From an uncultured bacterium (GTDB lineage Bacteria; Patescibacteriota; Minisyncoccia; Phycocordibacterales; DATDWN01), in assembly GCA_963727715.1 (NCBI GenBank), contig CAVSGX010000007.1:36688-100687 (forward strand): a DNA stretch of 64,000 bases, given 5' to 3'. Below are positions 9,824 through 54,599 of the stretch, piece after piece. The notes beneath the pieces are model-generated. The model did not search any database. It saw only the letters and a list, made by a program, of their open reading frames with translations, and was not told where the DNA came from. A program made the translations under genes and the position numbers. How positions within the stretch are numbered: position 1 is the stretch's first letter; each line of letters opens with the position of its first letter.

Positions 9824-11215
9824 ATGCCTCAATCCACCTCCTCACAATCAATCATCTCTCGCTTGCGTATGCCACCGCAAAATCTGGAAGCGGAGATGGC
9901 TTTCCTCGGCTCGGTTATGCTTCGGCCGGAAGCGCTTTATGATGTCATTGACACAGTTACGCCGGATTCTTTTTACTCGGACAAGCACCGCATCATTTTT
10001 GAAACAATGCTGGAACTTTGGAGCAAGCACCAGCCGATTGACCTTTTGTCCGTTTCCTCGCGTTTGTCTGAAAAAGGTTGGTTGGACCAAATCGGTGGCA
10101 ACATTTACCTGACCGAGCTGGTTAATGTCGTGCCATCGGCCGGCAACATCGCTCACTACGCCGGCATCATTCAAAAAAAACACATTATGCGTCGGCTGAT
10201 TGAGGCTTCGGACCACATCAATCAAATCGGTTACGACGAAATTTTGGAAATGGAAGAAGCTTTGGACTCGGCCGAGAAAAAACTTTTCGAAGTAACTTCC
10301 ACTCACGGCTCGCATAAATTCACTCCGCTCAAAGACGAACTCTCGGAAGCGTGGGAAAGGTTGGATCGCCTGCACAGCTCGGAATCAACTTTGCGTGGTG
10401 TGCCGACCGGTTTTGCCGAACTAGACAACAAACTTTCCGGTTTGCAAAAATCCGATTTGATAATTTTGGCCGGACGGCCCTCGACCGGCAAAACTTCGCT
10501 GGCATTAGACATCGCTCGTCAGACAGCTGTGGCTCACAACACTTCGGTTGGAATTTTCTCGCTGGAAATGTCATCGCAACAATTGGTTGATCGTATGCTT
10601 TCGGCTCAAGCCAATGTTGACGCTTGGAAAATGCGCACCGGCAAACTGTCGCGACAGGACGACTTTGAGGCCATCCGCGAAGCTCTGGACAAACTTTCCA
10701 AAGCGCCGATTTACATTGACGACCAGCCGGGCAACAACATTTTGAAAATGCGCTCTGTCGCCAGACGGCTGAAAAGCGAGCACGGACTCGGCCTGATTAT
10801 CGTGGACTACTTGCAACTGATGGTGCCGACCCAAACCAGAAACGACAATGTCGTCCAACAAGTGACCGAAATTTCCCACTCGCTGAAAAACTTGGCCCGC
10901 GAACTGGATGTGCCGGTTTTGGCTCTGTCGCAACTCTCCCGCGCTGTGGAGTCGCGTGGCGGTCGGCCACGTCTTTCCGACTTGCGCGATTCCGGTTCAA
11001 TTGAACAAGATGCCGACATTGTGATGTTTATTCATCGCGAAGACAAATACAAAGAAGCCAGCGAAAAAACAAATGTTGCTGAGATTTTGATTGAAAAGCA
11101 CCGAAATGGCGAGACCGGCAAAATTGAACTTTTCTTCAACGACAAAAAAGCCACATTCCAGAGTTTAGATAAATCAAACTTTAGTGGCGCCGAAAAGGAG
11201 TTTACAGATTTTTAA
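9824..11215 (+). CDS. dnaB: Replicative DNA helicase DnaB
   Basis: N-terminal DnaB domain (PPQNLEAEMAFLGSVM). Walker A (GRPSTGKTSLAL). RecA-like C-terminal domain. Confidence 0.9.
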   Translation: MPQSTSSQSIISRLRMPPQNLEAEMAFLGSVMLRPEALYDVIDTVTPDSFYSDKHRIIFETMLELWSKHQPIDLLSVSSRLSEKGWLDQIGGNIYLTELVNVVPSAGNIAHYAGIIQKKHIMRRLIEASDHINQIGYDEILEMEEALDSAEKKLFEVTSTHGSHKFTPLKDELSEAWERLDRLHSSESTLRGVPTGFAELDNKLSGLQKSDLIILAGRPSTGKTSLALDIARQTAVAHNTSVGIFSLEMSSQQLVDRMLSAQANVDAWKMRTGKLSRQDDFEAIREALDKLSKAPIYIDDQPGNNILKMRSVARRLKSEHGLGLIIVDYLQLMVPTQTRNDNVVQQVTEISHSLKNLARELDVPVLALSQLSRAVESRGGRPRLSDLRDSGSIEQDADIVMFIHREDKYKEASEKTNVAEILIEKHRNGETGKIELFFNDKKATFQSLDKSNFSGAEKEFTDF

Positions 11216-14914: not shown

Positions 14915-14985
14915 AGCGAGTGTAATTTAGTGGTAGAATTTGTGCTTCCCAAGCACAGAGCGCGGGTTCGATTCCCGCCACTCGC
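14915..14985 (+). tRNA. tRNA-Gly(CCC)
   Basis: Cloverleaf folded by hand: acceptor gcgagtg/cactcgc, anticodon loop ttCCCaa, T-arm gcggg-ttcgatt-cccgc. Confidence 0.85.
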
Positions 14986-15000
14986 ACAAAAAATAAATCG

Positions 15001-15071
15001 GTGGACCTAGGCGGAGTTGAACCGCCGCTTCGGCAATGCGAATGCCGCGTAATACCACTTTACTATAGGCC
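15001..15071 (-). tRNA. tRNA-Ala(CGC)
   Basis: Acceptor gggccta with G3:U70 Ala identity pair. Anticodon loop ttCGCat. T-arm ggcgg/ccgcc. Confidence 0.85.
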
Positions 15072-15075
15072 CTCT

Positions 15076-15149
15076 GTGCATCCTACAAGATTCGAACTTG
15101 TGACCTTGCGAATGTGAATCGCACGCTCTAACCAACTGAGCTAAGGATG
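15076..15149 (-). tRNA. tRNA-Val(CAC)
   Basis: gcatcct acceptor. D-arm gctc/gagc. Anticodon loop ttCACat. T-loop ttcgaat. Confidence 0.85.
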
Positions 15150-15168
15150 CAAATTCCCAAAAGTTATT

Positions 15169-15483
15169 TTATCCGACCATTAGAGCTATCACGATTAACA
15201 AAACAAAAAGGACAAGCCAGCCGAGAGTGGCAAAAAGAAAAATAAAAGCTTCTTTTTTGAGATTGTCCAAGTACAACATAATCGGGCGACCAAAAACCAA
15301 AAGTCCTGTAACAGAAGCCGATATAATAAAAATAAGCAACAAAAATACCGGCACAATAAAATTATTCCCAGTTTGACCGAAAATATCTTGCACGTGTGAA
15401 AAGAACCAGGCCACAGCCGAAACATAGGCCAGAACCCCGCCGGCATTTATAAAACTTTTTAAAATATAATCTGATTTTTTCAT
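15169..15483 (-). CDS. Small integral membrane protein (3 TM), hypothetical
   Basis: Hydrophobic ORF between tRNA genes. Confidence 0.4.
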   Translation of the reverse strand: MKKSDYILKSFINAGGVLAYVSAVAWFFSHVQDIFGQTGNNFIVPVFLLLIFIISASVTGLLVFGRPIMLYLDNLKKEAFIFLFATLGWLVLFVLLIVIALMVG

Positions 15484-15484
15484 G

Positions 15485-15555
15485 TGGACCTGCGGGGAAT
15501 CGAACCCCGACTACTTGAATGCCATCCAAGTGTAATACCGTTTTACTACAGGCCC
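15485..15555 (-). tRNA. tRNA-Ala(GGC)
   Basis: Acceptor gggcctg with G3:U70. Anticodon loop atGGCat. T-arm cgggg-ttcgatt-ccccg. Confidence 0.8.
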
Positions 15556-16235
15556 TCTAATATTATTTTTGGAATCAATTCCAACTCCAATTGTATATCT
15601 GTGCGACCGGTCATTACAACACAAACCCCTTTGTATTTTTTTTGTTTTGTTGGTTTCCCGACGGTTCTTGGATCAGGAATTGTTTTGTAAAAATTTTTCA
15701 ATGGAATCAGGGTTATTCGAGACCAATATATTTCAAGTTTGTTAATATTTTGGTCTGCACGATAACTGATCCTGCATTTCAAATCTTTCGGCTTAATATT
15801 GTAGCATAAATGAAGTAATTGCAAGTATAAAGTAATTATTTCCGGGCTCGAGCTACCTAGTGACAAACCTTTATGAGAATGCCATTTTGATCCTTCACCA
15901 AGATACAAAATGGAGAGTAACATTTTCAATAAATCTCTATCTTTCAGTTTTTTTGCCAAATGCTTATTTTTATCATGCAAACTTGAAAACAATTTTTCAC
16001 GTTTCAACTTACAAGACACCATTGCTATTTTTTGAGCTTTTGAAAGATTTGACTTATTAAGTTTATCAATTTTTTCTTGATATTCAGCGGGCAAATAAAT
16101 ACCACTACACCAGTTTGAAATAGTGCTCTTAGGAACTTTAATTTTTAACTTTTTAGTTATTTCAGAATATGTTAGGCCGGCTGCTCGAAGTTTTTTTGCT
16201 TTATTTATTTTTAATTTATCATACCTGGCTTTCAT
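15546..16235 (-). CDS. HTH plus single LAGLIDADG-like motif protein (putative homing-endonuclease-like)
   Basis: N-terminal sigma-70-region-4-like HTH (KLRAAGLTYSEITKKLKIKVPKSTISNW). LLKMLLSILYLGEGSKWHS resembles a LAGLIDADG motif. The 3' end overlaps the 5' end of tRNA-Ala(GGC) by ~10 nt. Confidence 0.4.
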   Translation of the reverse strand: MKARYDKLKINKAKKLRAAGLTYSEITKKLKIKVPKSTISNWCSGIYLPAEYQEKIDKLNKSNLSKAQKIAMVSCKLKREKLFSSLHDKNKHLAKKLKDRDLLKMLLSILYLGEGSKWHSHKGLSLGSSSPEIITLYLQLLHLCYNIKPKDLKCRISYRADQNINKLEIYWSRITLIPLKNFYKTIPDPRTVGKPTKQKKYKGVCVVMTGRTDIQLELELIPKIILEGL

Positions 16236-16294
16236 ACTATAATTGTACTCCAGTGATTCACCATGTGTAAATACAAAAATGTGGACAAACTGGA

Positions 16295-16657
16295 CTAAAA
16301 ATTCATGTCAGCGTTAATGCCCGCGACTGTGGAGTTGATGTAGCTTTGTGTCCAGACAATTGCCGACCAAATCATGATGACAGTCGACAATATTAAAAGC
16401 ACCCAGGCCACTTCTCCTATCTGTTTGGTTTTTGGGTCGTTTGATTTGAAATATTTCATCCCAGACCAACGGGTGATAAAAAGAAAACAGATGAATGGTA
16501 AGATGGCACTGAAAGCGTAGAGTTTAATCTGCGCGCCAAGCGTCGTGGAAAGCGGAGCTGAATTCAATTTCGTTCCGCAGTTCGGACAGAAATAATAACT
16601 CGACAAAACCGGTTGGTGGCATGTCGGGCAGACATTGGTATTAGAATTTGGTTCCAT
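16295..16657 (-). CDS. Zinc-ribbon membrane protein, hypothetical
   Basis: CPTC...CPNC N-terminal ribbon plus two TM helices. Confidence 0.45.
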   Translation of the reverse strand: MEPNSNTNVCPTCHQPVLSSYYFCPNCGTKLNSAPLSTTLGAQIKLYAFSAILPFICFLFITRWSGMKYFKSNDPKTKQIGEVAWVLLILSTVIMIWSAIVWTQSYINSTVAGINADMNF

Positions 16658-16693
16658 AAATTAATTCTACCAGAGTCAACTGTTTTTGACGAG

Positions 16694-16777
16694 CGGAGGG
16701 TAAGGGATTTGAACCCTTGATGCCTTTCGGCATACGCGCTCTCCAAGCGCGCGCACTAGACCGCTATGCGAACCCTC
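16694..16777 (-). tRNA. tRNA-Ser(GGA)
   Basis: Long variable arm (tatgccgaaaggcatc). Anticodon loop ttGGAga. Acceptor ggagggt/accctcc. Confidence 0.8.
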
Positions 16778-16799
16778 CTAAAATAAAATTTTCGGCAAA

Positions 16800-17363: not shown

Positions 17364-19178
<1,815 letters not shown>

Positions 19179-20616: not shown

Positions 20617-20745
20617 GAATTAATCTAATTTCTAATTATTCTAATTTCTAAATAAATCCCAATACCCAAAAATCAAAATCTTGGTCATTGGGATTTGGTG
20701 CTTGTTTAGAAATTAGGTTAATTAGGTTAATTAGAAATTATTATT
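20617..20745. repeat. AT-rich palindromic intergenic repeat, family 1 copy C (upstream of the SBP gene)
   Basis: aattaatctaatttctaattattctaatttctaaataaatcccaatacccaa ... ttggtcattgggatttggtgcttgtttagaaattaggttaattaggttaattagaaatt. The arms are reverse complements of each other. Confidence 0.75.
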
Positions 20746-22516: not shown

Positions 22517-22657
22517 AATTAATCTAATTTCTAATTATTCTAATTAATCTAAATAATAACTAAACCCCAATGACCAATAAGTTTCTATTATCATTTTGGG
22601 AATTTAGACATTGGGATTTATTTAGAGATTAAAATAATTAGGTCAATTAGAAATTTT
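22517..22657. repeat. AT-rich palindromic intergenic repeat, family 1 copy D (upstream of rnj)
   Basis: Begins aattaatctaatttctaattattctaatt like copy C. Contains ccccaatgaccaa...cattgggatttatttagagattaaaataattaggtcaattagaaatt. Confidence 0.75.
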
Positions 22658-22660
22658 ATT

Positions 22661-24460
22661 ATGAATCCATTACAAACCAGAACCCCTTCAACAACCAGAA
22701 GTCATCGTGTGGTTAGGCACCGTTACAGACCAGAAATGGCTGCCATCAGAGCGGCCAAAAAAGACGATATTATTCCGGAATCCGGTGATAATATCCGCAT
22801 AGTCACACTTGGCGGTGTGGAAGAAATCGGTAAAAATATGACGGTTGTGGAATACAAAAATGACATTATCGTCATTGACTCCGGTTTTCAATTCAAAGAT
22901 GACGAAACACCTGGAGTAGATTACATTTTGCCGAATATAAAATATCTGGAAGACAAAAAAAACAAGATCCGAGGAGTAATAATCACTCACGGACATTTGG
23001 ACCACATTGGGGCTATCCCCTACATTATGGATCGCATCGGCAATCCGCCGATTTACACTCGCACTCTGACCGCCATTATGATAAAAAAACGGCAAGAGGA
23101 GTTTAAACATCTTCCAAATCTGGACATTCGGGCAGTTGAAAAGGAAGACACCATTAGACTTGGTTCTATGAGAGTGAAATTTTTCAATGTCACTCATACC
23201 ATTCCTGACGCCATGGGAATTATCATTGAAACACCTTACGGTGTCATTGTTACTCCGGGAGATATAAAACTTGATCATGATGACGGTGTGCCGACCGCGG
23301 CCGAGGAAAAAGAATACGCTCGTTTTGCCAAAGAAAAAGTTTTGCTTCTTATGATGGATTCGACCAATGTCGACAACCCGGGTTTTTCCACACCGGAAAA
23401 ATTAGTGCATAAAAATCTGGAAGAGATTATCAAGAACACCAAAACCAGAATGATAATCGGCACTTTTGCCTCCCAGCTTGAGCGTATCATGAAAATAATT
23501 ATGATTGCCGAAAAATACGGCAAGAAAGTGGTCATTGAGGGACGCAGTATGAAAAATAATATTGACATCGCCATAGCCATCGGAATGCTGAAAATTAAAA
23601 AAGAAACTATTATTTCCGGCGAACAGATGGAAAATTATCCGCCCGATCGCATTGTCGTCCTGGCCACCGGCGCTCAAGGCGATGAATTCGCCGCCCTGAT
23701 GCGAATGTCCAACAAAACACACAAATATTTTCGTATCACTCCGCGCGACACTGTTGTTCTTTCCAGCTCCATCATCCCCGGCAACGAAAAAGCGGTTCAA
23801 AAATTGAAAGACAATCTGGCCAGACAAGGCGCCAAAATAATTCACTACCGCACATCGGATGTTTACATTCACTCCACCGGCCACGGCAATCGTGGCGAGC
23901 TGGAATGGTTGCACAAAAAAATTCGTCCGAAATTTTTCATACCGATACACGGTTCGCACTATATGTTGCGAGTCCATGAAGACTTGGCCAAATCTCTCGG
24001 CATGCCGACAGAAAATATTATCGTGCCGGACAACGGGGCCATTATGGAAATTCAAAACCATGGACAAAAATTTGTCAGATTGAAAGAGTCGGCTCCTAGC
24101 GGAATGATGATGGTGGACGGTTTTGCCATCGGCGATGTTTCGGAGTTGGTTATTCGCGACCGCAAAATGCTGGCCCAAGACGGAATGTTTGTCATCATCG
24201 CTTCGGTCAACACCAAGACAGGCAAACTGAAAAAATCGCCGGATATTATTTCGCGCGGTTTTGTTTATTTGCGCGAGTCGCAAGATCTTTTGGCTCAGGC
24301 CAGATTGATTATCAAAAAAACCGTGGAAGAAACGACCAGTGGAATGAACCCAATCAATTTTGATTTCGTCAAAAATTCCGTCTCTGAACAGCTTAGTCGA
24401 TTCCTTTTCCAAAAGACCGCCAAACGCCCGATCGTCATTCCTGTCATTTTGGGAGTTTAG
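22661..24460 (+). CDS. rnj: Ribonuclease J
   Basis: MBL domain HxHxDH (ITHGHLDHIGA). Beta-CASP and C-terminal domain. 599 aa. Confidence 0.9.
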   Translation: MNPLQTRTPSTTRSHRVVRHRYRPEMAAIRAAKKDDIIPESGDNIRIVTLGGVEEIGKNMTVVEYKNDIIVIDSGFQFKDDETPGVDYILPNIKYLEDKKNKIRGVIITHGHLDHIGAIPYIMDRIGNPPIYTRTLTAIMIKKRQEEFKHLPNLDIRAVEKEDTIRLGSMRVKFFNVTHTIPDAMGIIIETPYGVIVTPGDIKLDHDDGVPTAAEEKEYARFAKEKVLLLMMDSTNVDNPGFSTPEKLVHKNLEEIIKNTKTRMIIGTFASQLERIMKIIMIAEKYGKKVVIEGRSMKNNIDIAIAIGMLKIKKETIISGEQMENYPPDRIVVLATGAQGDEFAALMRMSNKTHKYFRITPRDTVVLSSSIIPGNEKAVQKLKDNLARQGAKIIHYRTSDVYIHSTGHGNRGELEWLHKKIRPKFFIPIHGSHYMLRVHEDLAKSLGMPTENIIVPDNGAIMEIQNHGQKFVRLKESAPSGMMMVDGFAIGDVSELVIRDRKMLAQDGMFVIIASVNTKTGKLKKSPDIISRGFVYLRESQDLLAQARLIIKKTVEETTSGMNPINFDFVKNSVSEQLSRFLFQKTAKRPIVIPVILGV

Positions 24461-26003: not shown

Positions 26004-26033
26004 AGCCCGACCTCGAGAGGGGTCGGGCTTTTA
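26004..26033 (+). terminator. GC-rich hairpin terminator
   Basis: agcccgacctcgagaggggtcgggct followed by ttt. Confidence 0.7.
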
Positions 26034-26244
26034 CGTGGAAAATATTGCTAAACAAATTTCGTCGAGCCAATACTTTTCCGGCACATCGCGCAGGAGGTTA
26101 GAAAACAACGACGCGGGCCTGAGTATACAGGCCGAGGAAGATTGTTTTCTTGACCGACGAGCGGGAAGAAAATTTTCAGTAGAAAATTATTCTGGTGGCG
26201 GAAAAGTGTTGGCTCGTAAGAAATTTGTGTTGTATAATATCCCC

Positions 26245-34760: not shown

Positions 34761-34837
34761 ATATTGATGATTAATGAGTAAGGTGTAAAAAGTAAAAACA
34801 CAAATTTTTTTACTTCTTACATCTTACTCTTTACTTA

Positions 34838-41133: not shown

Positions 41134-41736
41134 TTGATTTTATTATACAATTTAACTATGAGCATTTTCCATACTTTGCTACCCTGGTTGGAATCTTCCA
41201 AATATGTTTTGCTTTTTCTTGGCGCAGCTTTTGAAGGTCCGGCGGTAATGATGACTGGCGGTTTTTTATTTCGCCTTGGTCAGTTTAGTTTTTTGCCAAT
41301 GTATTTGGCTTTGGTTTTGGGCGATTTTACTTCCGATATGACCTACTACTGCGTAGGTCGGTTCGGCACCCGTTTGTTCATTTTAAGATTTAGACGGTTT
41401 TTGGGCGTCACTCCGGAAATTATAGAAAAAGTGGAAAGTCGCTTTTTGAAATACCATCAGAAAATTCTAATCATTTCCAAAATGACAATGGGTATGGGCT
41501 TCGCCACGGTTACTTTGATGGTCGCAGGGATGTTCAGGACGCCCACCAAGAATTTTGTTCTGATAAATCTTATTGGCGGATTTATCTGGACGGGCTTTGT
41601 GGTAGGTTTGGGATATTATTTTGGCAATATTTACTCGCAGATTTCCGGACCGCTGAAAATAATTTTTGTTTGTGCTATTGTGGCTGTTTTAGCTATTATT
41701 TTCACTTATGTCAATAAGAAACTGAAAGAATTATAA
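41134..41736 (+). CDS. DedA/VTT-family membrane protein
   Basis: F.G......G...G......L......GD.......Y..GR.G signature. Confidence 0.7.
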   Translation: MILLYNLTMSIFHTLLPWLESSKYVLLFLGAAFEGPAVMMTGGFLFRLGQFSFLPMYLALVLGDFTSDMTYYCVGRFGTRLFILRFRRFLGVTPEIIEKVESRFLKYHQKILIISKMTMGMGFATVTLMVAGMFRTPTKNFVLINLIGGFIWTGFVVGLGYYFGNIYSQISGPLKIIFVCAIVAVLAIIFTYVNKKLKEL

Positions 41737-41739
41737 GAT

Positions 41740-41917
41740 GAATTCCAAAATTACAACAAAAATATTTTTTGGAGACTCCGCAGGCGAGGAGCCGGTTTTG
41801 TCAACGACCCGAGCAAAGCGAGGGCTCTTGACAAATCCGAGCCGAGGACAGCCGAGAAAACTCGCTGGAGTTTTCGAGGTTGCTCCAAAAAATATTTTTT
41901 GTTGTAATTTTGGATTC
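41740..41917. repeat. MITE-like element with 33-bp near-perfect terminal inverted repeats and a GC-rich core (family 2, copy 1)
   Basis: gaattccaaaattacaacaaaaatattttttggag ... ctccaaaaaatattttttgttgtaattttggattc. Generates mirror-image 61/62-aa ORFs on both strands. Confidence 0.7.
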
Positions 41918-41927
41918 ATATAATAAT

Positions 41928-43073
41928 ATGAAAATCGCTTTATTCACCGACACATTCATACCGCAGATAAATGGCGTGGCCAACACCGTTTTTCGTTCAG
42001 CCACAGCTTTATCCAAGCTCGGCCATGAAGTTTCAGTTTTCACCATTTCCAAACACAATACTGAGGAGTTGTTGATTTTTTCCGGAAATGATTTTGAGGT
42101 TGTTACTTTGCCATCGACCGGCGCTCTGGTTTACAAAGGTGAAAGATTGTCCGCCCCTGTCGGTTTTGCCCTAAGAAAAATAAGAAAAAATCGGCCAGAC
42201 ATTATTCACACTCACACGCCGTTTTCTGTTGGTTGGGAAGCAGTCATTTCAGCCAAAAGACTCGGCATCCCTTTGGTTGGGACACATCATACTTTTTTTG
42301 ATCATTATTTGAAATATGTTTTTTTGGATTTTGATTGGGCCAAAAAATTTTCATGGAAAGCGACGGTTGGTTATTATAATCGTTGCGATATGGTTGTCAG
42401 TCCGACACATTCTCTAGCTGATGGTCTTAGGGAAAATGGTTTGAAAAAAAATATCGAGATTGTGGTTAATTCTTTGGATGTTGAAAAATTCAGTCCGGAC
42501 AAAAATAAAAAAAGAGGAACAAAAAATTTGGTTTATATGGGCCGGATCGGCTACGAAAAAAGCATTGATGATGTCATAAAGGCCACGGCCATAATCAAAC
42601 AAAAAATTCCGGACATCAGATTGGAAATTATCGGCGACGGCCCGGAAAAAGAAAACTTGCGTAAATTGGCCGAAGAACTCGGTCTTTCCAAAAATGTTTC
42701 TTTCAGCGGATTTCTGCACGGTCAAGAGCTTGTCAGAGCTTTGCAGAAGGCCGATGTTTTTCTTTTGGGTAGCAAAAGCGAAAATATGCCTCTGTCCGTT
42801 TTGGAAGCTATGGCTGTTGGCTTGCCTATTGTGGCTGTATCTTCCCTAGGTCTTTTGGAAATAGTGGCCGGTGGAGAAAACGGTTTTTTGATCTCGCCGG
42901 ACAATCCGAAAGAAATGGCTGAAAAGACTATTCTGCTTTTGAACGATCAGGAAAAACTGAAAAAGTTTTCAGAAAAATCCAGAGAAATGTCACTTCTCTA
43001 TTCCGACGAATCATCCGCCAAAAAACTTTTAGTTATTTATGAAAAACTTATTAAAAACCATCTAAAAAAATAA
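41928..43073 (+). CDS. Glycosyltransferase family 4
   Basis: GT4 C-terminal motif EAMAVGLPIVA. N-terminal Glyco_transf_4 domain. Confidence 0.8.
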   Translation: MKIALFTDTFIPQINGVANTVFRSATALSKLGHEVSVFTISKHNTEELLIFSGNDFEVVTLPSTGALVYKGERLSAPVGFALRKIRKNRPDIIHTHTPFSVGWEAVISAKRLGIPLVGTHHTFFDHYLKYVFLDFDWAKKFSWKATVGYYNRCDMVVSPTHSLADGLRENGLKKNIEIVVNSLDVEKFSPDKNKKRGTKNLVYMGRIGYEKSIDDVIKATAIIKQKIPDIRLEIIGDGPEKENLRKLAEELGLSKNVSFSGFLHGQELVRALQKADVFLLGSKSENMPLSVLEAMAVGLPIVAVSSLGLLEIVAGGENGFLISPDNPKEMAEKTILLLNDQEKLKKFSEKSREMSLLYSDESSAKKLLVIYEKLIKNHLKK

Positions 43074-43074
43074 A

Positions 43075-44088
43075 ATGAAAATTTGTTTATATTCCGAGTT
43101 TTATAAAATTTTCGGTGGCACGGAAAATATCGGCGGGGGACTCATATCGGCGCTGGAAAATCAAAAGAAAATGCTCAATTATTTGAATATTCCATTTACC
43201 GAAAAAATTGAAGAGGATTGGGATATTTTACAGGTCAACATCCCATGGCCAAAATCTCTGATGAAAGCAAAACGAGCCAAAAAAGACGGAAAGAAAGTTG
43301 TGATGTGGTCCCATGTGACGGTGGAGGATTTGCAAAAATCCATTGGTCTTTTCAAAATTATCCCCGGGCTTTCATGGTTGGTTAAAAAATATTTAACTTA
43401 CGCCTATTCCCTACCAGATATGGTTTTTTGCCCCACCCAATACACAAAAAACGTTTTGATTTCCTATGGTTTGCCAGCTGGAAAACTTTTCGTTCAATCA
43501 AACGCAGTTGACACAACAAAATTTTTCAAAAATTCTGACAAAAGAGATTCGTACCGCAAGAAATACAATTTGCAAGGTTTGGTCGTCGGCAACATAGCTT
43601 TGGTTATATACCGGAAAGGAACCGACACTTTTTTAAAAACGGCTTCAAAATTTCCGGAAAATAAATTTGTCTGGTTTGGAAAAATTTTCAGTAAAGTTTT
43701 TGTCCAAAAAACTTCAATGAAAACTCCGTCAAATGTTAGTTTTACTGGTTTTGTTGAAGATGCCAACTCGGCTTTGAATTCCATTGATATTTTTTTCTTC
43801 CCGTCATACGAAGAAAATCAGGGCATGGTTATTTTGGAAGCAGCTTGTCTTGGCTTGCCTATTTTGGTCCGCGATATCCCAGCCTATCAAGGGTGGCTTA
43901 AACACAATGAAAATTGTCTCAAAGCCGGAAACGATGAAGAATTTGAAAAATATTTGGGGCAACTTTTGACAGATGGGACTTTGCGTTTGCGTTTGAGCAG
44001 TGAAGCTCTGAAACTGGCCGAGAGAGAGAGCATCCCTGCCTTGGCCCAGAAATTGAAACTGGAATACGAAAGACTTTTAAAAATATGA
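43075..44088 (+). CDS. Glycosyltransferase family 4
   Basis: E...LEAACLGLPILVRD motif. Confidence 0.7.
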   Translation: MKICLYSEFYKIFGGTENIGGGLISALENQKKMLNYLNIPFTEKIEEDWDILQVNIPWPKSLMKAKRAKKDGKKVVMWSHVTVEDLQKSIGLFKIIPGLSWLVKKYLTYAYSLPDMVFCPTQYTKNVLISYGLPAGKLFVQSNAVDTTKFFKNSDKRDSYRKKYNLQGLVVGNIALVIYRKGTDTFLKTASKFPENKFVWFGKIFSKVFVQKTSMKTPSNVSFTGFVEDANSALNSIDIFFFPSYEENQGMVILEAACLGLPILVRDIPAYQGWLKHNENCLKAGNDEEFEKYLGQLLTDGTLRLRLSSEALKLAERESIPALAQKLKLEYERLLKI

Positions 44089-44882
44089 AAGAATATTTTT
44101 TTGAAGAAAGAGGAATATTTTACAGAAAAAACGATTTTGTCCAGGGTCGACCGACTTTGATTTTCATACATGGTGTTTCGGCCAGTTCTATTTATTGGGA
44201 GCCATACGAAAATAAATTCCAAAATCATTTCAATGTTTTGTCTCTGGACCTACGTGGCCATGGTAAATCAAAAAAATTTAAAAGATACGACGACTATAAA
44301 ATTAAAAATCTCGCCGATGACGTTTATGCGCTTTTATCGGAATTAAAAATAGAAAAACCGATTTTGATCTGCCATTCTTTCGCCACACTTGTAGCCTTGG
44401 AATTTATGTCCGAACAAGAAAATTTGCTTTCGGCCGCGGTTTTGCTCAGTCCTAATTATTCTGTCAAAAAAAATTGGTTTGGAAATTTTTTGAATTTTCT
44501 TTTTGAAAAAAATCTTATGCCACTTTTCTTTTGGCCTGAAATCAAGGGCCATGTTGACCATCAACGCTACCTCGGCACCGGCGATTGGAATTTTCGCCGT
44601 GTTTTTCAGGACATTTTGAAAACTGGTTTCCGAATTTATTTTTATTACATTGCTTCAATGTCCGGTTTTGATCGCCAAGATCTCCTGTCGAAAATAAAAA
44701 TTCCGACATTGATTATCCACGGCAAGAAAGACGGATATTTCCCAGTCCAAAACGCCATTTATATGGCTAGTATGACCCCCCATTCCGAGTTGCACCTTTT
44801 ATCAAAGGCTGACCATATTATTGTTCTAAACAATTTCCCAGAAATTTCCGAACTGATAGAGCGGTTTGTGCAAAAAATTTAA
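44085..44882 (+). CDS. Alpha/beta-fold hydrolase
   Basis: HGxxxS N-terminus (IFIHGVSASS). Nucleophile elbow CHSFA. Confidence 0.65.
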   Translation: MKEYFFEERGIFYRKNDFVQGRPTLIFIHGVSASSIYWEPYENKFQNHFNVLSLDLRGHGKSKKFKRYDDYKIKNLADDVYALLSELKIEKPILICHSFATLVALEFMSEQENLLSAAVLLSPNYSVKKNWFGNFLNFLFEKNLMPLFFWPEIKGHVDHQRYLGTGDWNFRRVFQDILKTGFRIYFYYIASMSGFDRQDLLSKIKIPTLIIHGKKDGYFPVQNAIYMASMTPHSELHLLSKADHIIVLNNFPEISELIERFVQKI

Positions 44883-44900
44883 ACTGATACTATATATTAT

Positions 44901-45551
44901 ATGAAAGAAACGCTGATTTCATACAAAACTCACTTTAAGGATAAGAAATTCATCTGGTCAGTTATTATAGCCCTTCTTTTTTTAGCTGTATCTTTGGTTA
45001 TAAACTTTTACGCTGGAACATACGCTACGGAAAGCGCCAGTAGTCCGGTTACCGATATTATTCTTTCCAACACCAAAGCTTTTGATTTGGATGGTTTGTT
45101 CGTTTACGGTTCTCTTATTTTTTTCTTTTTCAGTTGCTTTATTTGTCTCAGGGACCCGGAAAAAATTCCATTCGCCGGTAAAAGCATCGCTTTGTTTATT
45201 ATTACCAGATCTATTTTTATCAGTATGACCCATATTGGACCGTTTCCGTCGCAAATAGCTATTCATTCGGATATTCTTTCAAAATTGACGTTTGGGGGTG
45301 ACTTATTTTTTTCTGGTCATACCGGTCTACCTTTTCTCTTGGCTTTGATTTTTTGGCAGAATAAAACCATCCGGAATATTTTCATCGCCTTTTCCCTATT
45401 TTTCGCCGTGGTTGTCCTTCTAGCTCATTTGCACTACACTATCGATGTGATGTCGGCATTCTTTATCACCTACACCATATTTCATATCGCCGAGTTTCTT
45501 TTTGCAAAGGAAAGGAAATTATTTTTCTCCGGTATGATTGGACAGCCCTAG
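44901..45551 (+). CDS. PAP2-superfamily-like membrane protein
   Basis: SGH and HxxxD motifs (FFSGHTGLP; LAHLHYTIDV) within TM helices. Confidence 0.45.
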   Translation: MKETLISYKTHFKDKKFIWSVIIALLFLAVSLVINFYAGTYATESASSPVTDIILSNTKAFDLDGLFVYGSLIFFFFSCFICLRDPEKIPFAGKSIALFIITRSIFISMTHIGPFPSQIAIHSDILSKLTFGGDLFFSGHTGLPFLLALIFWQNKTIRNIFIAFSLFFAVVVLLAHLHYTIDVMSAFFITYTIFHIAEFLFAKERKLFFSGMIGQP

Positions 45552-45583
45552 ATTATTCCCGAGTAAAATTTCATTTTTAACAT

Positions 45584-46387
45584 ATGAAAACTCTTAAACG
45601 TCATACTAATTCAAGTTACCCTCACACTTTGTCTGAGAAATTGTATTCATTTTTTATCATGCCTCTTTTTCTTGTCGCTTTGATCTTCGTTGGCATCAAA
45701 ATTTTTCATCTACCATTTGTCAACTTATCCCCGTTATCTTTTTACGATATCGGCTTGGCGGCCTTTTTGACTTTGTCTCGCTTGCTTTTAGCTTATGCTA
45801 TGGCTATCATTGTGGCCATTCCTTTGGCTATTTTGGCCACACATTCCAAAACTGCTGAAAAAATTCTTTTGCCTTTATTTGATATTTTGGAATCAGTTCC
45901 AATCCTGGCCTTTTTCCCGGTTCTGATTTTTCTTTTCCTGAAATTCGGCGCGCTTAATATGGCTGCTGTTTTCATACTTTTTTTGAGCATGCTTTGGAAT
46001 ATTGTTTTCACCCTGGTTGGTGGCATAAAAATAATTCCGCAGGATATTATTTCGGCAGCCAAAGTTTTTAAAATAAACGGTTTTCAATATTTGCGTCGAG
46101 TTCTTTTGCCGGCCATTTTTCCGGAGATTGTCACTGGCTCCATTTTAGCTATGGCTCAAGGTTGGAACCTGATCATCGTGGCCGAAGTGATGCACACTTA
46201 TTTGCCCCACGGCACAGCAAGCCAAGACTTGTTCGGCCTCGGCAGTATTTTGGTGAACGCGGCGTCAAATGGCCAAAACAGTATTTTCCTGGTCACTTTG
46301 CTTGCGATGATTTTAATCATTGCTTTGTTTAATTTCTTTATCTGGCAAAAACTTTTGCATTACGCGCAGGAATTTAAATTTGAATAA
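45584..46387 (+). CDS. ABC transporter permease (NitT/TauT-type BPD_transp_1)
   Basis: 6-TM permease with EAA-like loop. Confidence 0.75.
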   Translation: MKTLKRHTNSSYPHTLSEKLYSFFIMPLFLVALIFVGIKIFHLPFVNLSPLSFYDIGLAAFLTLSRLLLAYAMAIIVAIPLAILATHSKTAEKILLPLFDILESVPILAFFPVLIFLFLKFGALNMAAVFILFLSMLWNIVFTLVGGIKIIPQDIISAAKVFKINGFQYLRRVLLPAIFPEIVTGSILAMAQGWNLIIVAEVMHTYLPHGTASQDLFGLGSILVNAASNGQNSIFLVTLLAMILIIALFNFFIWQKLLHYAQEFKFE

Positions 46388-46388
46388 A

Positions 46389-47099
46389 ATGGAAAAAATA
46401 ATTTCTTTTGAAAATGTCGGCAAAATTTATCCCTTGGTCAAGGAAACGGCTTTGGTTGATGTTAATTTTTCGGTGGAGACGGGCCAGTTTGTTTGTATGG
46501 TTGGCGCTTCGGGCGGAGGCAAAACAACCATTTTGAAAATCATCGCCGGTTTGGAGAAAGAAACTTCCGGCAAAGTTATAAAACCGGACAACGTTTCCAT
46601 GGTTTTTCAATCCGGAGCGGTTTTCCCTTGGCTCTCTGTTTTTGACAATATCGCTATGCCACTTCAAGTCAAAAATCTTTCATACAGAGAAATTAAAAAA
46701 ACAGTGGATCAGCAAATGGAAATAATGGGGCTTTCGGCTTTCATTCAAAAACGACCGTCCGAACTTTCCGGCGGGCAACGCCAACGGGTCGGCATCGCTC
46801 GCGCTTTGGTCGTCAACCCTGATGTTCTTCTTTTGGATGAACCTTTTTCCGCTTTGGACGCCAAAACCACATCGGAATTGCACCAGGACCTCATAAAAAT
46901 CTGGAAAGAAACCGGCAAGACTATTGTTATGGTTTCGCATCTTATTGAGGAAGCCGTTTCTTTGGCCAGTAGAGTTCTCTTGGTTAAAAATAAAACCGTG
47001 GTTCATGAATTTGAAATCAATTTCCCTTATCCGCGACGCGAACAGCAGGAAGCTTTTATGTCCGAAGTGACAAAAATCCGAAAAGAGTTTTTCCTTTGA
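46389..47099 (+). CDS. ABC transporter ATP-binding protein (NitT/TauT-type)
   Basis: Walker A GASGGGKTT. LSGGQRQRVGIARAL. Walker B LLLDEPFSALD. Confidence 0.9.
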   Translation: MEKIISFENVGKIYPLVKETALVDVNFSVETGQFVCMVGASGGGKTTILKIIAGLEKETSGKVIKPDNVSMVFQSGAVFPWLSVFDNIAMPLQVKNLSYREIKKTVDQQMEIMGLSAFIQKRPSELSGGQRQRVGIARALVVNPDVLLLDEPFSALDAKTTSELHQDLIKIWKETGKTIVMVSHLIEEAVSLASRVLLVKNKTVVHEFEINFPYPRREQQEAFMSEVTKIRKEFFL

Positions 47100-47234
47100 A
47101 TTCCAAAACTCTTGTCTCGGAAAATCCTTTGCGGAGCACGCGTCAAAAATCTGCTGATTTTTGCGCTCACTCTCGCATCGTCGTGCTCCGAGAGTCTCCG
47201 CAAACGATTTTCACTCGCCGTAGTTTTGGAATTC
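47098..47234. repeat. MITE-like palindromic element with gaattccaaaact termini and a GC-rich core (family 2, copy 2)
   Basis: tgaattccaaaactcttgtctcgg...gcggagcacg ... cgtgctccgagagtctccgc...agttttggaattc. Shares the gaattccaaaa ends and the gag(a/t)ctccgca core with the 41740 copy. Overlaps the ATPase stop codon. Confidence 0.65.
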
Positions 47235-47260
47235 AAAATTCATGTGACTGATAAGATGAC

Positions 47261-47749
47261 TTGACAACCCCAACAACAAGAGTAGACTTATGCCGGAGGT
47301 TCGAAACAATGCTACATCAATTTTACGCAGTTACATTGACTTCCATATATCTTGTGGGGGATAAAAAGGAAAATAGTCCTTACCCTTTCGCCCAAAAAAT
47401 CGCCCTAAAAGGAGAAAGTGGGATACCGGTTGGGAATGAACTAGAAAATGGCACAATGATTGCCATCGCCAAACAACTTCAGGCTTATATCCCCGAAGGA
47501 GGAGGTTTGACCTCTTTCGAGAGAAGACTTGAAATGGTTAATACAAGATATTGGGGGGGCCATTCATCCTACATAGTTGCTCTTTTCAAGACAGAAAAAG
47601 AAGCCGAGGAATGTCTTGGACAAGATAATCTCCAACCGTGTGATAATCGTTGGGTTGAGAAGACAAAAGAAATAATCGAAGAAATTGGAGAAAATCATCC
47701 GGCGTTTGAAGTTTGCAGATGGCATGATCTTGCTCTTTTAGAATCTTAA
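47261..47749 (+). CDS. Hypothetical protein
   Basis: ORF only. Confidence 0.35.
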   Translation: MTTPTTRVDLCRRFETMLHQFYAVTLTSIYLVGDKKENSPYPFAQKIALKGESGIPVGNELENGTMIAIAKQLQAYIPEGGGLTSFERRLEMVNTRYWGGHSSYIVALFKTEKEAEECLGQDNLQPCDNRWVEKTKEIIEEIGENHPAFEVCRWHDLALLES

Positions 47750-47800
47750 TTAATATAGATAAAATATTTGCGAGGCTTGAGAGCCCCGCAAATTTTTTAT

Positions 47801-48388
47801 TTAAATAATCCATTTGTACAAATTGAATCCCAAAATAGACCCGATGATTGGCGCCAAAAGATATGTCCAATTCATGGCGTGGAGTGAAAAGGCCACGGCT
47901 GGATTCAAAATACCAAACGAGCCGGCAAGCGAGGCAATAAGAATACCGAAAAGAAGTGAACTGCCGATAATGACGCCGGAAAAAGCGTGAGGAACTTTTT
48001 CATACGCCACCGCCGCTATGCCGAGAGTGAAGAACAATGTGCCCAAAGCTTCGGCGCAAAAAATAGCGACGGAAAAATGAGCCAGGGTTGGACTTGGTTG
48101 ATTCATATGGAAAAGAAGTGTGCCTGAGATTATAGCTAGCGAAGCACCAGCAAATTGAGAGACAATGTAACTGATAACATCCTGCCATTTAATTTTTCTA
48201 ACTGACCAAAGACCGATGGTAACAGCCGGATTTATGTGACAACCAGACAGTGGACCAATCAAATAAACAAAAAGACCGAAAGTCAGTCCGATTATTACCG
48301 GCACGGGAAGAGGCAAGTTTTGACTTGTCACCGCCGCAAAAACAATAAAAGAGAGAGCAAATGTGCCGATCAGTTCGGCCAGATACAT
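47801..48388 (-). CDS. Aquaporin / MIP-family channel
   Basis: Two NPA boxes (GCHINPAVTIG and GILNPAVAFS). Six TM helices. Start moved to MYLAELIGTF. Confidence 0.85.
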   Translation of the reverse strand: MYLAELIGTFALSFIVFAAVTSQNLPLPVPVIIGLTFGLFVYLIGPLSGCHINPAVTIGLWSVRKIKWQDVISYIVSQFAGASLAIISGTLLFHMNQPSPTLAHFSVAIFCAEALGTLFFTLGIAAVAYEKVPHAFSGVIIGSSLLFGILIASLAGSFGILNPAVAFSLHAMNWTYLLAPIIGSILGFNLYKWII

Positions 48389-48401
48389 ATTGTATTTTTT
48401 T

Positions 48402-48539
48402 ATCCGCACACTAACATTGTCATTATTTTTTTGTTCTATCATAAAATTGTAATTAAATATTTTATTAAAAATGATTAAATGATAAATTGCTAATGCCTTT
48501 TTTGAAAAATGGGATCATAACAATGTTAGTGTGCGGATG
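48402..48539. repeat. 19-bp perfect inverted repeat (atccgcacactaacattgt) bracketing ~100 bp of AT-rich DNA in the aquaporin 5' region
   Basis: Arms at 48402-48420 and 48521-48539. Confidence 0.6.
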
Positions 48540-48579
48540 AATTTAAAAAAATTATTTGATAATTTTATTCACGTGTTAA

Positions 48580-49161
48580 TTATATCATATTTTCTTTCAT
48601 TTTTCTTTTTTTGATAATTTTGACCAGCAAGTAAACAAGTGGCACAATCAAAATGACGGCTATGACATAATATTGCAGGTACGTTGGACCAAGACGCAGA
48701 GCCATTCGGCCAAAATAATAACCAATGGAAAGTAAAGCTAGTGATCGCAAAGCGTTTAGAATAAAAACAGACTCAAAAAAGCGACCAAGAGACATTTTTG
48801 AAACCCCCGCAGCTAACATAAAAACAGTGCCCAGACCATAAGAAACTTTGGCTACCAACATTGTTTTCCACGGTGACTTTTCATACCGCGCTTCCATTCT
48901 GTTTATCATTTCATCAGAAACTCTCAAAAATTTTAGTCTCTGTATCAAATTTCTGCCATTGCGGCCAATGATGTAAAAAATGGTGTCGGAAATGACATCC
49001 CCAAAATAAACCACCAAAAAAGCCGGCAAAAAAGCCAGAATGTGTCGCGAAACCAAAAAACCGGAAATGATAGTGATGATCGGCCCCTCCAAAACGGCTA
49101 TTGGAAAAATGGCAACATATTTGTAGTGAACAAAGAATCTGATGAGCACTCTGGTAGTCAT
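48580..49161 (-). CDS. DedA/VTT-family membrane protein (second paralog)
   Basis: VLEGPIITIISGFLVS...GDVISDTIFYIIGRNG signature. Confidence 0.65.
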   Translation of the reverse strand: MTTRVLIRFFVHYKYVAIFPIAVLEGPIITIISGFLVSRHILAFLPAFLVVYFGDVISDTIFYIIGRNGRNLIQRLKFLRVSDEMINRMEARYEKSPWKTMLVAKVSYGLGTVFMLAAGVSKMSLGRFFESVFILNALRSLALLSIGYYFGRMALRLGPTYLQYYVIAVILIVPLVYLLVKIIKKRKMKENMI

Positions 49162-54492: not shown

Positions 54493-54550
54493 TATTATTG
54501 TTTCTCTGCATTATACTAAAACAGGTTCAGAATTTACAGTGAGAAACTAT

Positions 54551-54580
54551 AAAAAACAGTGTTTTGTAACACTGTTTTTT
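54551..54580. terminator. Perfect hairpin terminator
   Basis: aaaaaacagtgtt-ttgt-aacactgtttttt. Confidence 0.75.
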
Positions 54581-54599
54581 AAAATTTTCAATATTGAAT

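Follow-up and report, generated by a model that had tools for sequence, protein, structure and literature searches.

Intergenic hairpin elements with a conserved three-way core and copy-specific arms: an apparently undescribed family restricted to Patescibacteria

A long palindrome fills the gap between dedA and the GT4 gene of an uncultured member of the Patescibacteria, and the question it raises is what kind of element stands there and how it is maintained. We studied a window of 64,000 nucleotides, i.e., the whole stretch of DNA that was analysed, in which the initial annotation had described this palindrome and a second one at the end of an ABC ATPase gene as copies of one MITE-like family. 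Both were confirmed as real and very stable palindromes, both are intergenic, and they belong to one family as proposed; the MITE classification was not supported, since several of its hallmarks fail (see below). The two palindromes, designated E1 and E2, and a third copy, E0, are members of a family of non-coding intergenic hairpin elements that is restricted to Patescibacteria and apparently undescribed.

Table 1 Positions of the hairpin elements and of their parts in the window
Feature	Position	Strand	Score
E1, full-length canonical member: outer stem P1 and three-way core	41738..41919	+	CM R1/R2 146-149 bits
E1 P1, 5' arm, AT-rich; outer part copy-specific; inner end TTTTTTGGAG conserved in the family	41738..41774	+	
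E1 P2, long irregular helix: UCC/GGA, GGC/GCC and GGA/UCC with GA-rich internal loops	41777..41848	+	
E1 P2, continued: UUUGUCAA/UUGACAAA, then a co-varying apical hairpin	within 41777..41848	+	
E1 P3 hairpin; co-variation in 9/10 stem pairs; loop context CGCTGG conserved	41849..41882	+	
E1 P1, 3' arm	41883..41919	+	
E2, degenerate 'mini' relative without distal P2; strand is the homologous orientation	47095..47237	-	CM 25.2 bits
E0, third, diverged full-length member	26052..26228	+	CM R2 35.3 bits, E = 8.5e-7

The inverted repeats of E1, previously described as near-perfect, were complementary along 35 nt apart from two 1-nt indels (41740-41774 and 41883-41917), and the palindrome extended outward to ATGAATTCC/GGATTCAT, which gives the full span in Table 1. 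E1 occupies the interval between the stop codon of dedA (VTT domain; 41734-41736) and the ATG of GT4 at 41928. Its core is GC-rich, as had been noted: the GC content was 58% in the core, 22% in the arms and 42% in the window. The RNA fold of E1 had an energy of -88.8 kcal/mol (z = -10.95).

E2 presented a perfect 16-nt inverted repeat, TTTGAATTCCAAAACT (47095-47110 and 47222-47237), and a 17-nt inner stem (fold z = -8.9). It does overlap the stop codon of the ABC ATPase gene: the TGA at 47097-47099 falls inside the left arm and is supplied by it. The termini shared with E1 were also found as described, the 12-mer TGAATTCCAAAA occurring three times in the window (left end of E1, both ends of E2) versus 0.11 expected; within the family, 12-16 terminal nt were common to E1 and E2 only. 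The 'related core' of the two elements was a weaker resemblance than claimed: the blastn match covered only 44 nt with 73% identity (E = 0.03) and paired the plus strand of E1 with the minus strand of E2. The structure-aware covariance model (CM) gave E2 25.2 bits on the minus strand vs 15.6 bits on the plus strand, and global alignment to the second copy in contig L001 gave z = 5.5 (minus) vs 2.5 (plus).

E0 was overlooked in the initial annotation and was absent from the original finding. Its score was obtained with the filters off, and the lack of a minus-strand entry among the model hits puts that strand below about 15 bits. The element is made up of an outer stem of 18+9 bp, a long P2 and an A/U-rich P3 hairpin (fold z = -10.7), without the terminal motif common to E1 and E2. 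It is located after a terminator at 26012-26035 and before TTGGCT-18-TATAAT, a promoter-like sequence belonging to the next gene; the copies in L005 and L010 are likewise sited between an upstream terminator and a downstream promoter. All three window copies have strongly diverged, E0 reaching 35 bits with a model dominated by E1-type copies.

Fourteen distinct homologous copies were found in Patescibacteria contigs (Parcubacteria, and one from Saccharibacteria), and the family ranges in size from about 140 to 200 bp. The common architecture is an outer stem of 30-36 bp, its sequence peculiar to each copy, around a conserved GC-rich three-way core, which is asymmetric, with GA-rich internal loops in P2 and a CGCTGG loop in P3. 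In the arms of the 14 copies the outer 15-20 bp were mutually unalignable and the inner TTTTYGGAG end alone was conserved; perfect stems of at least 33 bp were present in seven copies. The sequences of the P2 apex and of the P3 hairpin also differed between copies, and no ORF was conserved among them, the reading frame shifting from copy to copy because the P2 apex differs in length. Of 241 million metagenome records, only seven contigs matched an exact 20-mer of the core; a second core 20-mer had a match in one of 185,579 species genomes. A covariance model is now in hand for annotating the family.

The structure has been kept by many compensatory changes. In the covariation alignment A9 (15 rows, of which L023 and L024 were near-identical), standard pairs made up 96.6% of the pair cells vs 76.5% in shuffles, and double changes were found in 32 of 55 pairs, a level reached in none of 500 shuffles; slid controls of A9 gave 30-58%. 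Co-variation was located in P1, the P2 apex and P3, the nucleotides of the junction and loops being invariant, and the middle helix of P2 carried a double change from U-A to C-G in L023. Orthologous arms had changed on both strands in the comparisons L005/L018, L022/L023 and window/L001. In the initial annotation, covariation in favour of a structured RNA such as a terminator or riboswitch was to count against the MITE reading; covariation proved abundant, but the structure resembles neither a terminator nor a riboswitch. An intrinsic terminator was rejected, with no T-run after P1 in E1, E2, E0 or the homologs. A riboswitch or cis-regulatory leader was likewise rejected: orientation is not fixed, eight independent loci being co-directional with the neighbouring genes and four of the 12 opposite, and the element adjoins housekeeping genes that have no relation to one another (GT4, L25, HlyD, RNase HII, DsbA, TruB, GatB and PPDK). 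A search of the window with the 4227 families of Rfam 15 gave gathering-score passes for tRNAs only, and E1 and E2 gave only chance hits at E <= 10.

Comparison with relatives showed how these elements change and move. Contig L001 carries a homologous copy at the same dedA/GT4 junction as E1, where nucleotide identity between the window and L001 was 66% for dedA, 72% for GT4 and 45% at third codon positions. The core is under strong purifying selection: its identity was 94.7%, higher than that of the second codon positions of the neighbouring genes. The arms evolved at near neutral speed (58-65% identity; 58% for the 5' arm), yet they are fully paired in both copies and their complementarity is still perfect. 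The dedA/GT4 junction was empty in five relatives (L002, L004, L015, L016 and L017), and E2 was not present in the syntenic L001 and borders a 1.48-kb indel; E1 is an insertion, and in this respect the earlier view of an insertion origin stands. Among related genomes, copies have appeared, disappeared and changed place, and they lie in either orientation. Next to the L25 gene, in another lineage, the element lies upstream (+) in L005 and L018-21 and downstream (-) in L022 and L023-26, and L005 and L010 have the same, otherwise near-identical element in unrelated gene contexts, with an 11-bp arm block that is wholly different but perfectly paired. L001 holds a second, mini copy at another site, and mini and diverged derivatives occur side by side in one genome. 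The usual position is directly after a stop codon or terminator, and the family accounts for several gene-order and intergenic differences among related genomes of the candidate phyla radiation (CPR).

The reading that we tentatively prefer, as quite possible though far from assured, is that of a slowly mobile, non-autonomous palindromic hairpin element of the REP/REPIN/ERIC type that acts as DNA. The ungapped arms of the 14 copies contained 399 Watson-Crick, two GU, two AC and five other pairs (408 in total), and the 793 pair cells of the whole structure included 753 Watson-Crick, 13 GU (1.6%) and 10 AC (1.3%), with no excess of GU over AC on the model strand. The minimum free energy of the core differed between model and opposite strand by a mean of -0.3 kcal/mol, the model strand being the stabler in nine of 16. 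Because pairs are near-exclusively Watson-Crick without wobble excess, the strands are equally stable and orientation is mixed, the hairpin would be kept, and probably used, as DNA. It may form in single-stranded or cruciform DNA, and the conserved core may be a cis-acting module for a trans-acting, hairpin-specific protein. The complementarity of the arms would probably be kept by hairpin-templated correction, i.e., intrastrand template switching at quasi-palindromes, and the family offers a natural system for how long palindromes stay perfect by concerted evolution of their two arms. E1 lies in an operon, no promoter was predicted immediately before it, and it is thus probably transcribed; such a copy would also give a very stable RNA hairpin, as a side effect of which mRNA processing or stability may change. 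The purifying selection on the core argues against a DNA element, since the locus is orthologous and vertically inherited: such selection would be expected of a host-level functional RNA, whereas a selfish DNA element should decay there, unless turnover or re-insertion is fast.

Among known systems, REPINs and REP-BIMEs, which RAYT (Y1/HUH) transposases mobilise, are similar in that they are non-coding, extragenic, able to form a hairpin as ssDNA or mRNA, kept in that form by compensatory changes, non-autonomous and persistent in lineages, with no TIR/TSD logic, and adjoin stop codons and terminators (PMC3116915, PMC3337134). REPINs consist of two highly conserved inverted REP ends with a variable spacer (PMC3116915), whereas the present family has an asymmetric conserved centre and variable arms. 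Similar REPIN copies also number in the tens to hundreds, whereas those of the present family are few and strongly diverged, and RAYT genes are flanked by their REPs, a link not found here. The L022 copy has a RAYT-like Y1 transposase gene at a distance of 1.2 kb, which scored 63 bits with the NCBIfam model REP_Tyr_transpos, short of the cutoff of 80; this gene had no flanking hairpins and no homolog in the window, and in two other genomes no element lay within 10 kb on either side of it. No enzyme could be tied to the element, nor did a cognate TnpA (Y1) turn up of the kind that an IS200/IS605-derived PATE would match through its left and right subterminal hairpins and guide/cleavage tetranucleotides. 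In the ERIC, Correia, BOX and RUP families the terminal repeats are conserved, a duplication of TA or the like is present, and each genome harbours many similar copies. They resemble the present elements as intergenic palindromes of 100-200 bp, often co-transcribed in operons, with RNA hairpins able to alter mRNA processing and with modular and mini variants. We know of none with a conserved three-way core and copy-specific arms, nor of any from Patescibacteria.

The main rival, likewise possible though somewhat less likely, is a structured RNA, i.e., a functional module that would act either by itself as a small RNA or in cis within mRNAs. The long perfect duplex of P1 would then be a clamp or an RNase III-type processing stem, the three-way junction, tandem G·A loops and CGCUGG loop would bind a protein or make a tertiary fold, and mobility would amount to no more than a gene gained or lost now and then. 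With its co-varying helices and the invariant nucleotides of its junction and internal loops, the core looks like a classic functional RNA, and its conservation at a locus with saturated third codon positions, the co-directional majority of loci and the probable transcription of E1 fit such a role. The model strand far outscored the opposite strand (146-167 vs 18-31 bits), cUUCGg tetraloops were present on the model strand in two copies (L006 and L008), and the P3 pairs included four GU and no AC. However, the overall GU and AC fractions are far under those of typical RNA families and show no strand bias, both strands are equally stable, and at the four loci in opposite orientation a flanking transcript would carry the reverse complement. 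Moreover, the element had no conserved promoter or U-tract terminator of its own, though these organisms use canonical sigma-70 and SD signals, several copies sit after terminators, mini forms lack the most conserved helix, and the Rfam search gave no match. Orphan structured RNA motifs of Rfam, and the RNase III processing stalks or intervening sequences of rRNA, are comparable in their long closing helix, conserved multi-helix core, co-varying helices, invariant junctions and patchy presence; the present family differs from these in the missing Rfam 15 match, the near absence of wobble pairs, the mixed orientation and the lack of an own promoter or terminator.

In the tiny genomes of Patescibacteria, few mobile elements have been recognised and few non-coding RNAs are known. 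Core conservation, fast but complementary arms and hops between intergenic sites together point to an unrecognised functional RNA or to a new style of palindromic mobile DNA, the latter conserved at its centre and free at its ends. It is unlikely, though worth stating, that these hairpins are a new centre-conserved class, either an RNase III-released, protein-binding three-way-junction RNA or a hairpin-mobilised DNA, whose hypervariable, perfectly paired arm segment does not drift but is regenerated or programmed in each copy. Such arms would imply an unknown templated or guide-like mechanism, of which the 11-bp block of L005 and L010 would be an example. The TIGR arrays of CPR bacteria and phages also occur in Patescibacteria and have variable palindromic stems around conserved motifs, but TIGR units are short and tandem, with box C/D motifs and dual spacers, beside a Nop-domain Tas gene (PMC12045711); none of those features was present here, the copies being solitary and their neighbours housekeeping genes.

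A classic MITE, i.e., a deletion derivative of a TIR transposon whose transposase would recognise the gaattccaaaa TIRs and make target-site duplications (TSDs), is very improbable and already largely refuted. The outer ends of E1 and E2 have TGAATTCCAAAA(Y)TAC in common in this genome, L007, L023 and L001 likewise have outer ends resembling GAATTC, insertions are polymorphic at orthologous sites, and size and intergenic location fit. However, the arms are almost wholly different between copies, even orthologs, and co-vary, the terminal motif is missing in E0, near-identical copies are absent within the 64-kb window, and the conserved part is the centre, not the ends. ATAA/TATAA was found on both sides of E1 as a possible TSD, but the empty sites already read ATAA-ATAA, and none was seen at E2 or at copies 1 and 2 of L001. 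An IS with matching ends did not appear either: exact 20-mers from each half of the core, left and right, gave only complete short elements, never a longer one whose halves were separated by a transposase, and no real matches in viral contigs.

That these are ordinary hairpins, i.e., unrelated intrinsic terminators or chance palindromes of an AT-rich genome, is hardly credible and was already refuted for E1 and E0: long AT-rich hairpins are many in this genome (e.g., 34774-34831, 47754-47805 and 54544-54587) and, on the strength of P1 alone, score up to 20 bits in the model, and E2 taken alone might be one if its weak 25-bit similarity were due to chance, but a conserved core recurs in 14 copies, which come from independent assemblies, the stem is not followed by a U-tract, the L011 copy has a separate canonical terminator beside it, as do those of L005 and E0, and the fold z-scores are about -9 to -11.

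The two palindromes described in the initial annotation, E1 and E2, were present as described there, and both folded far more stably than shuffled sequences (z = -10.95 and -8.9, respectively). The arms of E1, 35 nt each, are complementary save two single-base indels, and the palindrome reaches out to ATGAATTCC/GGATTCAT, filling the gap from the stop of a VTT/DedA-domain gene (dedA) to the ATG of a GT4 glycosyltransferase gene. The GC content was 58% in the E1 core, 22% in its arms and 42% in the window. In E2, the 16-nt inverted repeat, TTTGAATTCCAAAACT, is perfect and is accompanied by a 17-nt inner stem; an ABC ATPase gene has its TGA stop codon within the left arm. The 12-mer TGAATTCCAAAA occurred three times against 0.11 expected, always at an element end. 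By sequence alone the resemblance of E1 (+) to E2 (-) was weak (44 nt at 73% identity, E = 0.03). A search of the window with the improved covariance model R2, filters off, gave three elements: these two and E0, a newly found, diverged full-length copy.

Features of the window, and of related contigs where named, with R2 scores
Feature	Position	Strand	R2 score
AT-rich palindromic repeats	8198-8286, 19046-19170, 20618-20740, 22520-22661		
tRNA gene cluster	14916-16778	both	
E0, scored part	26063-26216	+	35.3 bits, E = 8.5e-7
E0, full hairpin	26052-26228	+	
AT-rich hairpin after MacB/FtsX	34774-34831	-	
dedA stop codon	41734-41736		
E1, total span	41738-41919	+	149 bits
E1, arms	41740-41774 / 41883-41917		
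GT4 start region	41912-41930		
GT4 ATG	41928		
E2	47095-47237	-	25.2 bits, E about 3e-4
E2, opposite strand		+	15.6 bits
E2, 16-nt inverted repeat	47095-47110 / 47222-47237		
Insertion relative to L001, beside E2	47240-48580		
Promoter-like site	47261		
147-aa ORF	47310-47749		
Hairpin terminator	47754-47805		
28-nt inverted repeat	48399-48426 / 48514-48541		
MIP gene start	48442	-	
L005, differing stem block	2035-2051		
L010, differing stem block	2565-2581		
L022, Y1/HUH gene	1806-2480		
L027 and L030, RAYT-like gene	10001-10675		

A homologous element was found at the same dedA|GT4 gap in the syntenic JGI contig L001, whose GT4 protein is 73% identical to that of the window; GT4 homologs placed the host in the Patescibacteria/Parcubacteria. 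Nucleotide identity between the two contigs was 66% for dedA, 72% for GT4 (45% at its third codon positions), 94.7% for the 76-nt E1 core and 58-65% for the E1 arms. Despite this divergence, the arms of L001 form a perfect 36-bp stem, and those of the window still pair, save the two indels. In five more distant relatives (L002, L004, L015, L016 and L017; GT4 61-66% identity) dedA and GT4 abut or overlap, with empty junctions reading TAAATG, ATAATG, or TAA plus 4-8 nt and ATG. Judging from these empty junctions, E1 is an insertion in the lineage of the window and L001. The ATAA on either side of E1 is no evidence of a target-site duplication, because the empty site already reads ATAA-ATAA. The GT4 start codon lies 8 nt after E1; it lacks a Shine-Dalgarno sequence, and a perfect TATAAT stands 3 nt before it. 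Where relatives have no E1, dedA and GT4 are translationally coupled (TAAATG or ATAATG).

The public scans required exact 20-mer matches, so the family has at least the breadth and copy number given here: seven metagenome contigs matched an exact core 20-mer, and a different exact 20-mer had one match among 185,579 species representatives, in a Saccharibacteria MAG. A second, ‘mini’ copy in L001 (copy 2) was found by the covariance model, and those of L018-L026 by following the L25 neighbourhood of L005. All copies share a long outer stem, P1, whose inner end is conserved as TTTTYGGAG/CTCCRAAAA, and two core helices: P2, in which GA-rich loops separate UCC/GGA, GGC/GCC and GGA/UCC, followed by UUUGUCAA/UUGACAAA and an apical hairpin that varies; and P3, a hairpin whose CGCTGG loop context is conserved. 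Among 15 aligned copies, 96.6% of pair cells held standard pairs (76.5% in shuffles), and both-sided changes were seen in 32 of 55 pairs, a result reached by none of 500 shuffles; slid controls gave 30-58%. This covariation, which the initial annotation had set against its own reading of E1 and E2 as MITEs, supports the structure. One change, U-A to C-G in L023, fell mid-P2, where the pairs are otherwise invariant; this apparent invariance is partly an ascertainment effect of scanning for exact matches. No ORF was conserved across copies, since the frame shifts with the length of the P2 apex; two frames, one of 61 aa across E1 and one starting with UUG behind GAGGAG, were both rejected as not conserved.

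E0 showed the P1-P2-P3 layout of the family, and its opposite strand had no entry in the R2 search of the window. E2 aligned as a mini form without the distal P2, resembling copy 2 of L001, and its global alignments gave z = 5.5 and 4.3 on the minus strand versus 2.5 and 1.5 on the plus strand. E2 probably belongs to the family, short of certainty because plain hairpins score up to 20 bits. It is not present in L001 and borders, on the left, a window insertion of 1.48 kb that lies between the ABC ATPase gene and a convergent VTT gene. Next to E2, the insertion holds a 147-aa ORF with no assigned function, a promoter-like TTGACA-16-TAGACT, a hairpin terminator and a MIP channel gene. The first codons of this minus-strand gene pair with its 5' leader in a 28-nt inverted repeat (89% complementary), a stem that may control translation and is unrelated to the E family.

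Three comparisons, together with the insertion of E1, point to movement of the element. L005 and L010, unrelated in gene context, carry a nearly identical element plus ~25 nt on each side. Copies of the L25 lineage lie upstream of L25 in + orientation (L005, L018-21) or downstream in - orientation (L022, L023-26), with L25 identities of 87% (L025) and 76% (L023-26). Copy 2 of L001 follows the MacB/FtsX stop; an AT-rich hairpin of 23 bp is all that the window has right after that stop. In many copies the element starts 0-5 nt from a stop codon, and others have a terminator before them and the next promoter after them; the neighbours are unrelated housekeeping genes. Halfway along the outer stem, L005 (TTTCACTGAAC) and L010 (CCCTGATTGCA) differ wholly in an 11-bp block, each version being perfectly paired with its mirrored 3' arm in elements otherwise near-identical.

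A 224-aa Y1/HUH gene lies 1.2 kb from the element of L022, and its product scored 63 bits against NCBIfam REP_Tyr_transpos, below the cutoff of 80. RAYT-like proteins of this family abound in Patescibacteria (5,726 homologs at E < 1e-20) and are very widespread and conserved there (65-79% identity), with L027 and L030 as further carriers. A link to the element was not supported: in two other genomes the 10 kb to each side of the gene had no copy, no hairpins were found flanking the gene, and the window has no homolog. In L030 the gene sits between two Peptidase_M24 gene pieces, and in L022 a direct repeat of ~30 bp is found at its 3' end.

We tentatively regard the family as a DNA-level, REP/REPIN-like palindromic element; a structured RNA, the main rival, is only somewhat less likely. 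The core has the look of a functional RNA, with cUUCGg loops in L006 and L008, the model strand far outscores the opposite strand, and P3 includes four GU and no AC pairs. However, the whole structure comprised 753 WC, 13 GU, 10 AC and 17 other pairs, the ungapped arms of 14 copies 399, 2, 2 and 5, respectively, and seven P1 stems were perfect across 33-36 bp; core stability was equal on both strands (mean difference -0.3 kcal/mol). Eight of 12 independent loci had the element co-directional with its neighbours, but four had the opposite orientation, among them the L011, L009 and L022 types, and in L011 it separates the stop codon of a minus-strand gene from the canonical terminator belonging to that gene. 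No promoter or terminator of the element's own was conserved, though the hosts use canonical TTGACA-17-TATAAT and GGAGG. In orthologous pairs (window/L001, L005/L018 and L022/L023), 20-40% of arm positions differed, indels included, with the changes mirrored in the other arm. This is the pattern expected from hairpin-templated correction of quasi-palindromes, by which the two arms may stay complementary. From the pairing, strand stability, orientation and arm changes we therefore lean to the DNA-level element.

Like this family, REPINs form hairpins, show compensatory changes and are extragenic; they have conserved ends, a variable spacer, high copy number and a RAYT link (PMC3116915), whereas the layout here is reversed. 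Arrayed units, box C/D motifs and a link to Tas mark the TIGR stem-loop arrays of CPR (PMC12045711), and all of these are absent here. The initial annotation was right in proposing one family and a mobile one; as MITEs in the strict sense the elements did not hold up, since they showed insertion polymorphism but no conserved TIRs, no clear target-site duplication, no near-identical copies in the 64 kb covered and no parent IS. The family fits best among bacterial palindromic intergenic elements, as a new variant; the alternative is an orphan structured RNA motif, also new.

Other identities were rejected. By eye, the core lacked the diagnostic motifs of SRP, 6S, 5S and Y RNA, of hammerhead, HDV, twister and hairpin ribozymes, and of box C/D and TIGR RNAs; the R''/R' boxes of integron attC were likewise absent by eye. 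An 8-nt minus-strand resemblance to the HDV L3 loop, CUCCUCGC, had no matching fold. TTGACA in both P2 arms, considered as an inverton or internal promoter, has no -10 partner, and promoter-like arm sites (TTAACA-18-TATTTT in L005; one in L006, by eye) were not kept in L018, L007 and L008. Rfam 15, whether scanned at gathering score or with E <= 10, returned only tRNAs and chance hits, four pattern scans of viral contigs gave nothing or two chance hits in GC-rich coding sequence, motif search revealed no rnc gene within the sampled loci (too small a part of each genome to be informative), and a search of the literature on CPR MITEs or RNA motifs yielded nothing relevant.

A separate AT-rich palindromic family, present in the window at least four times, has arms TAATTTCTAATTA... 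and CCCAATGACCAA-like centres, and looks closer to a genuine multi-copy REP/MITE-type repeat than E1/E2. The window also contains five clustered tRNA genes (Gly-CCC, Ala-CGC, Val-CAC, Ala-GGC and Ser-GGA).
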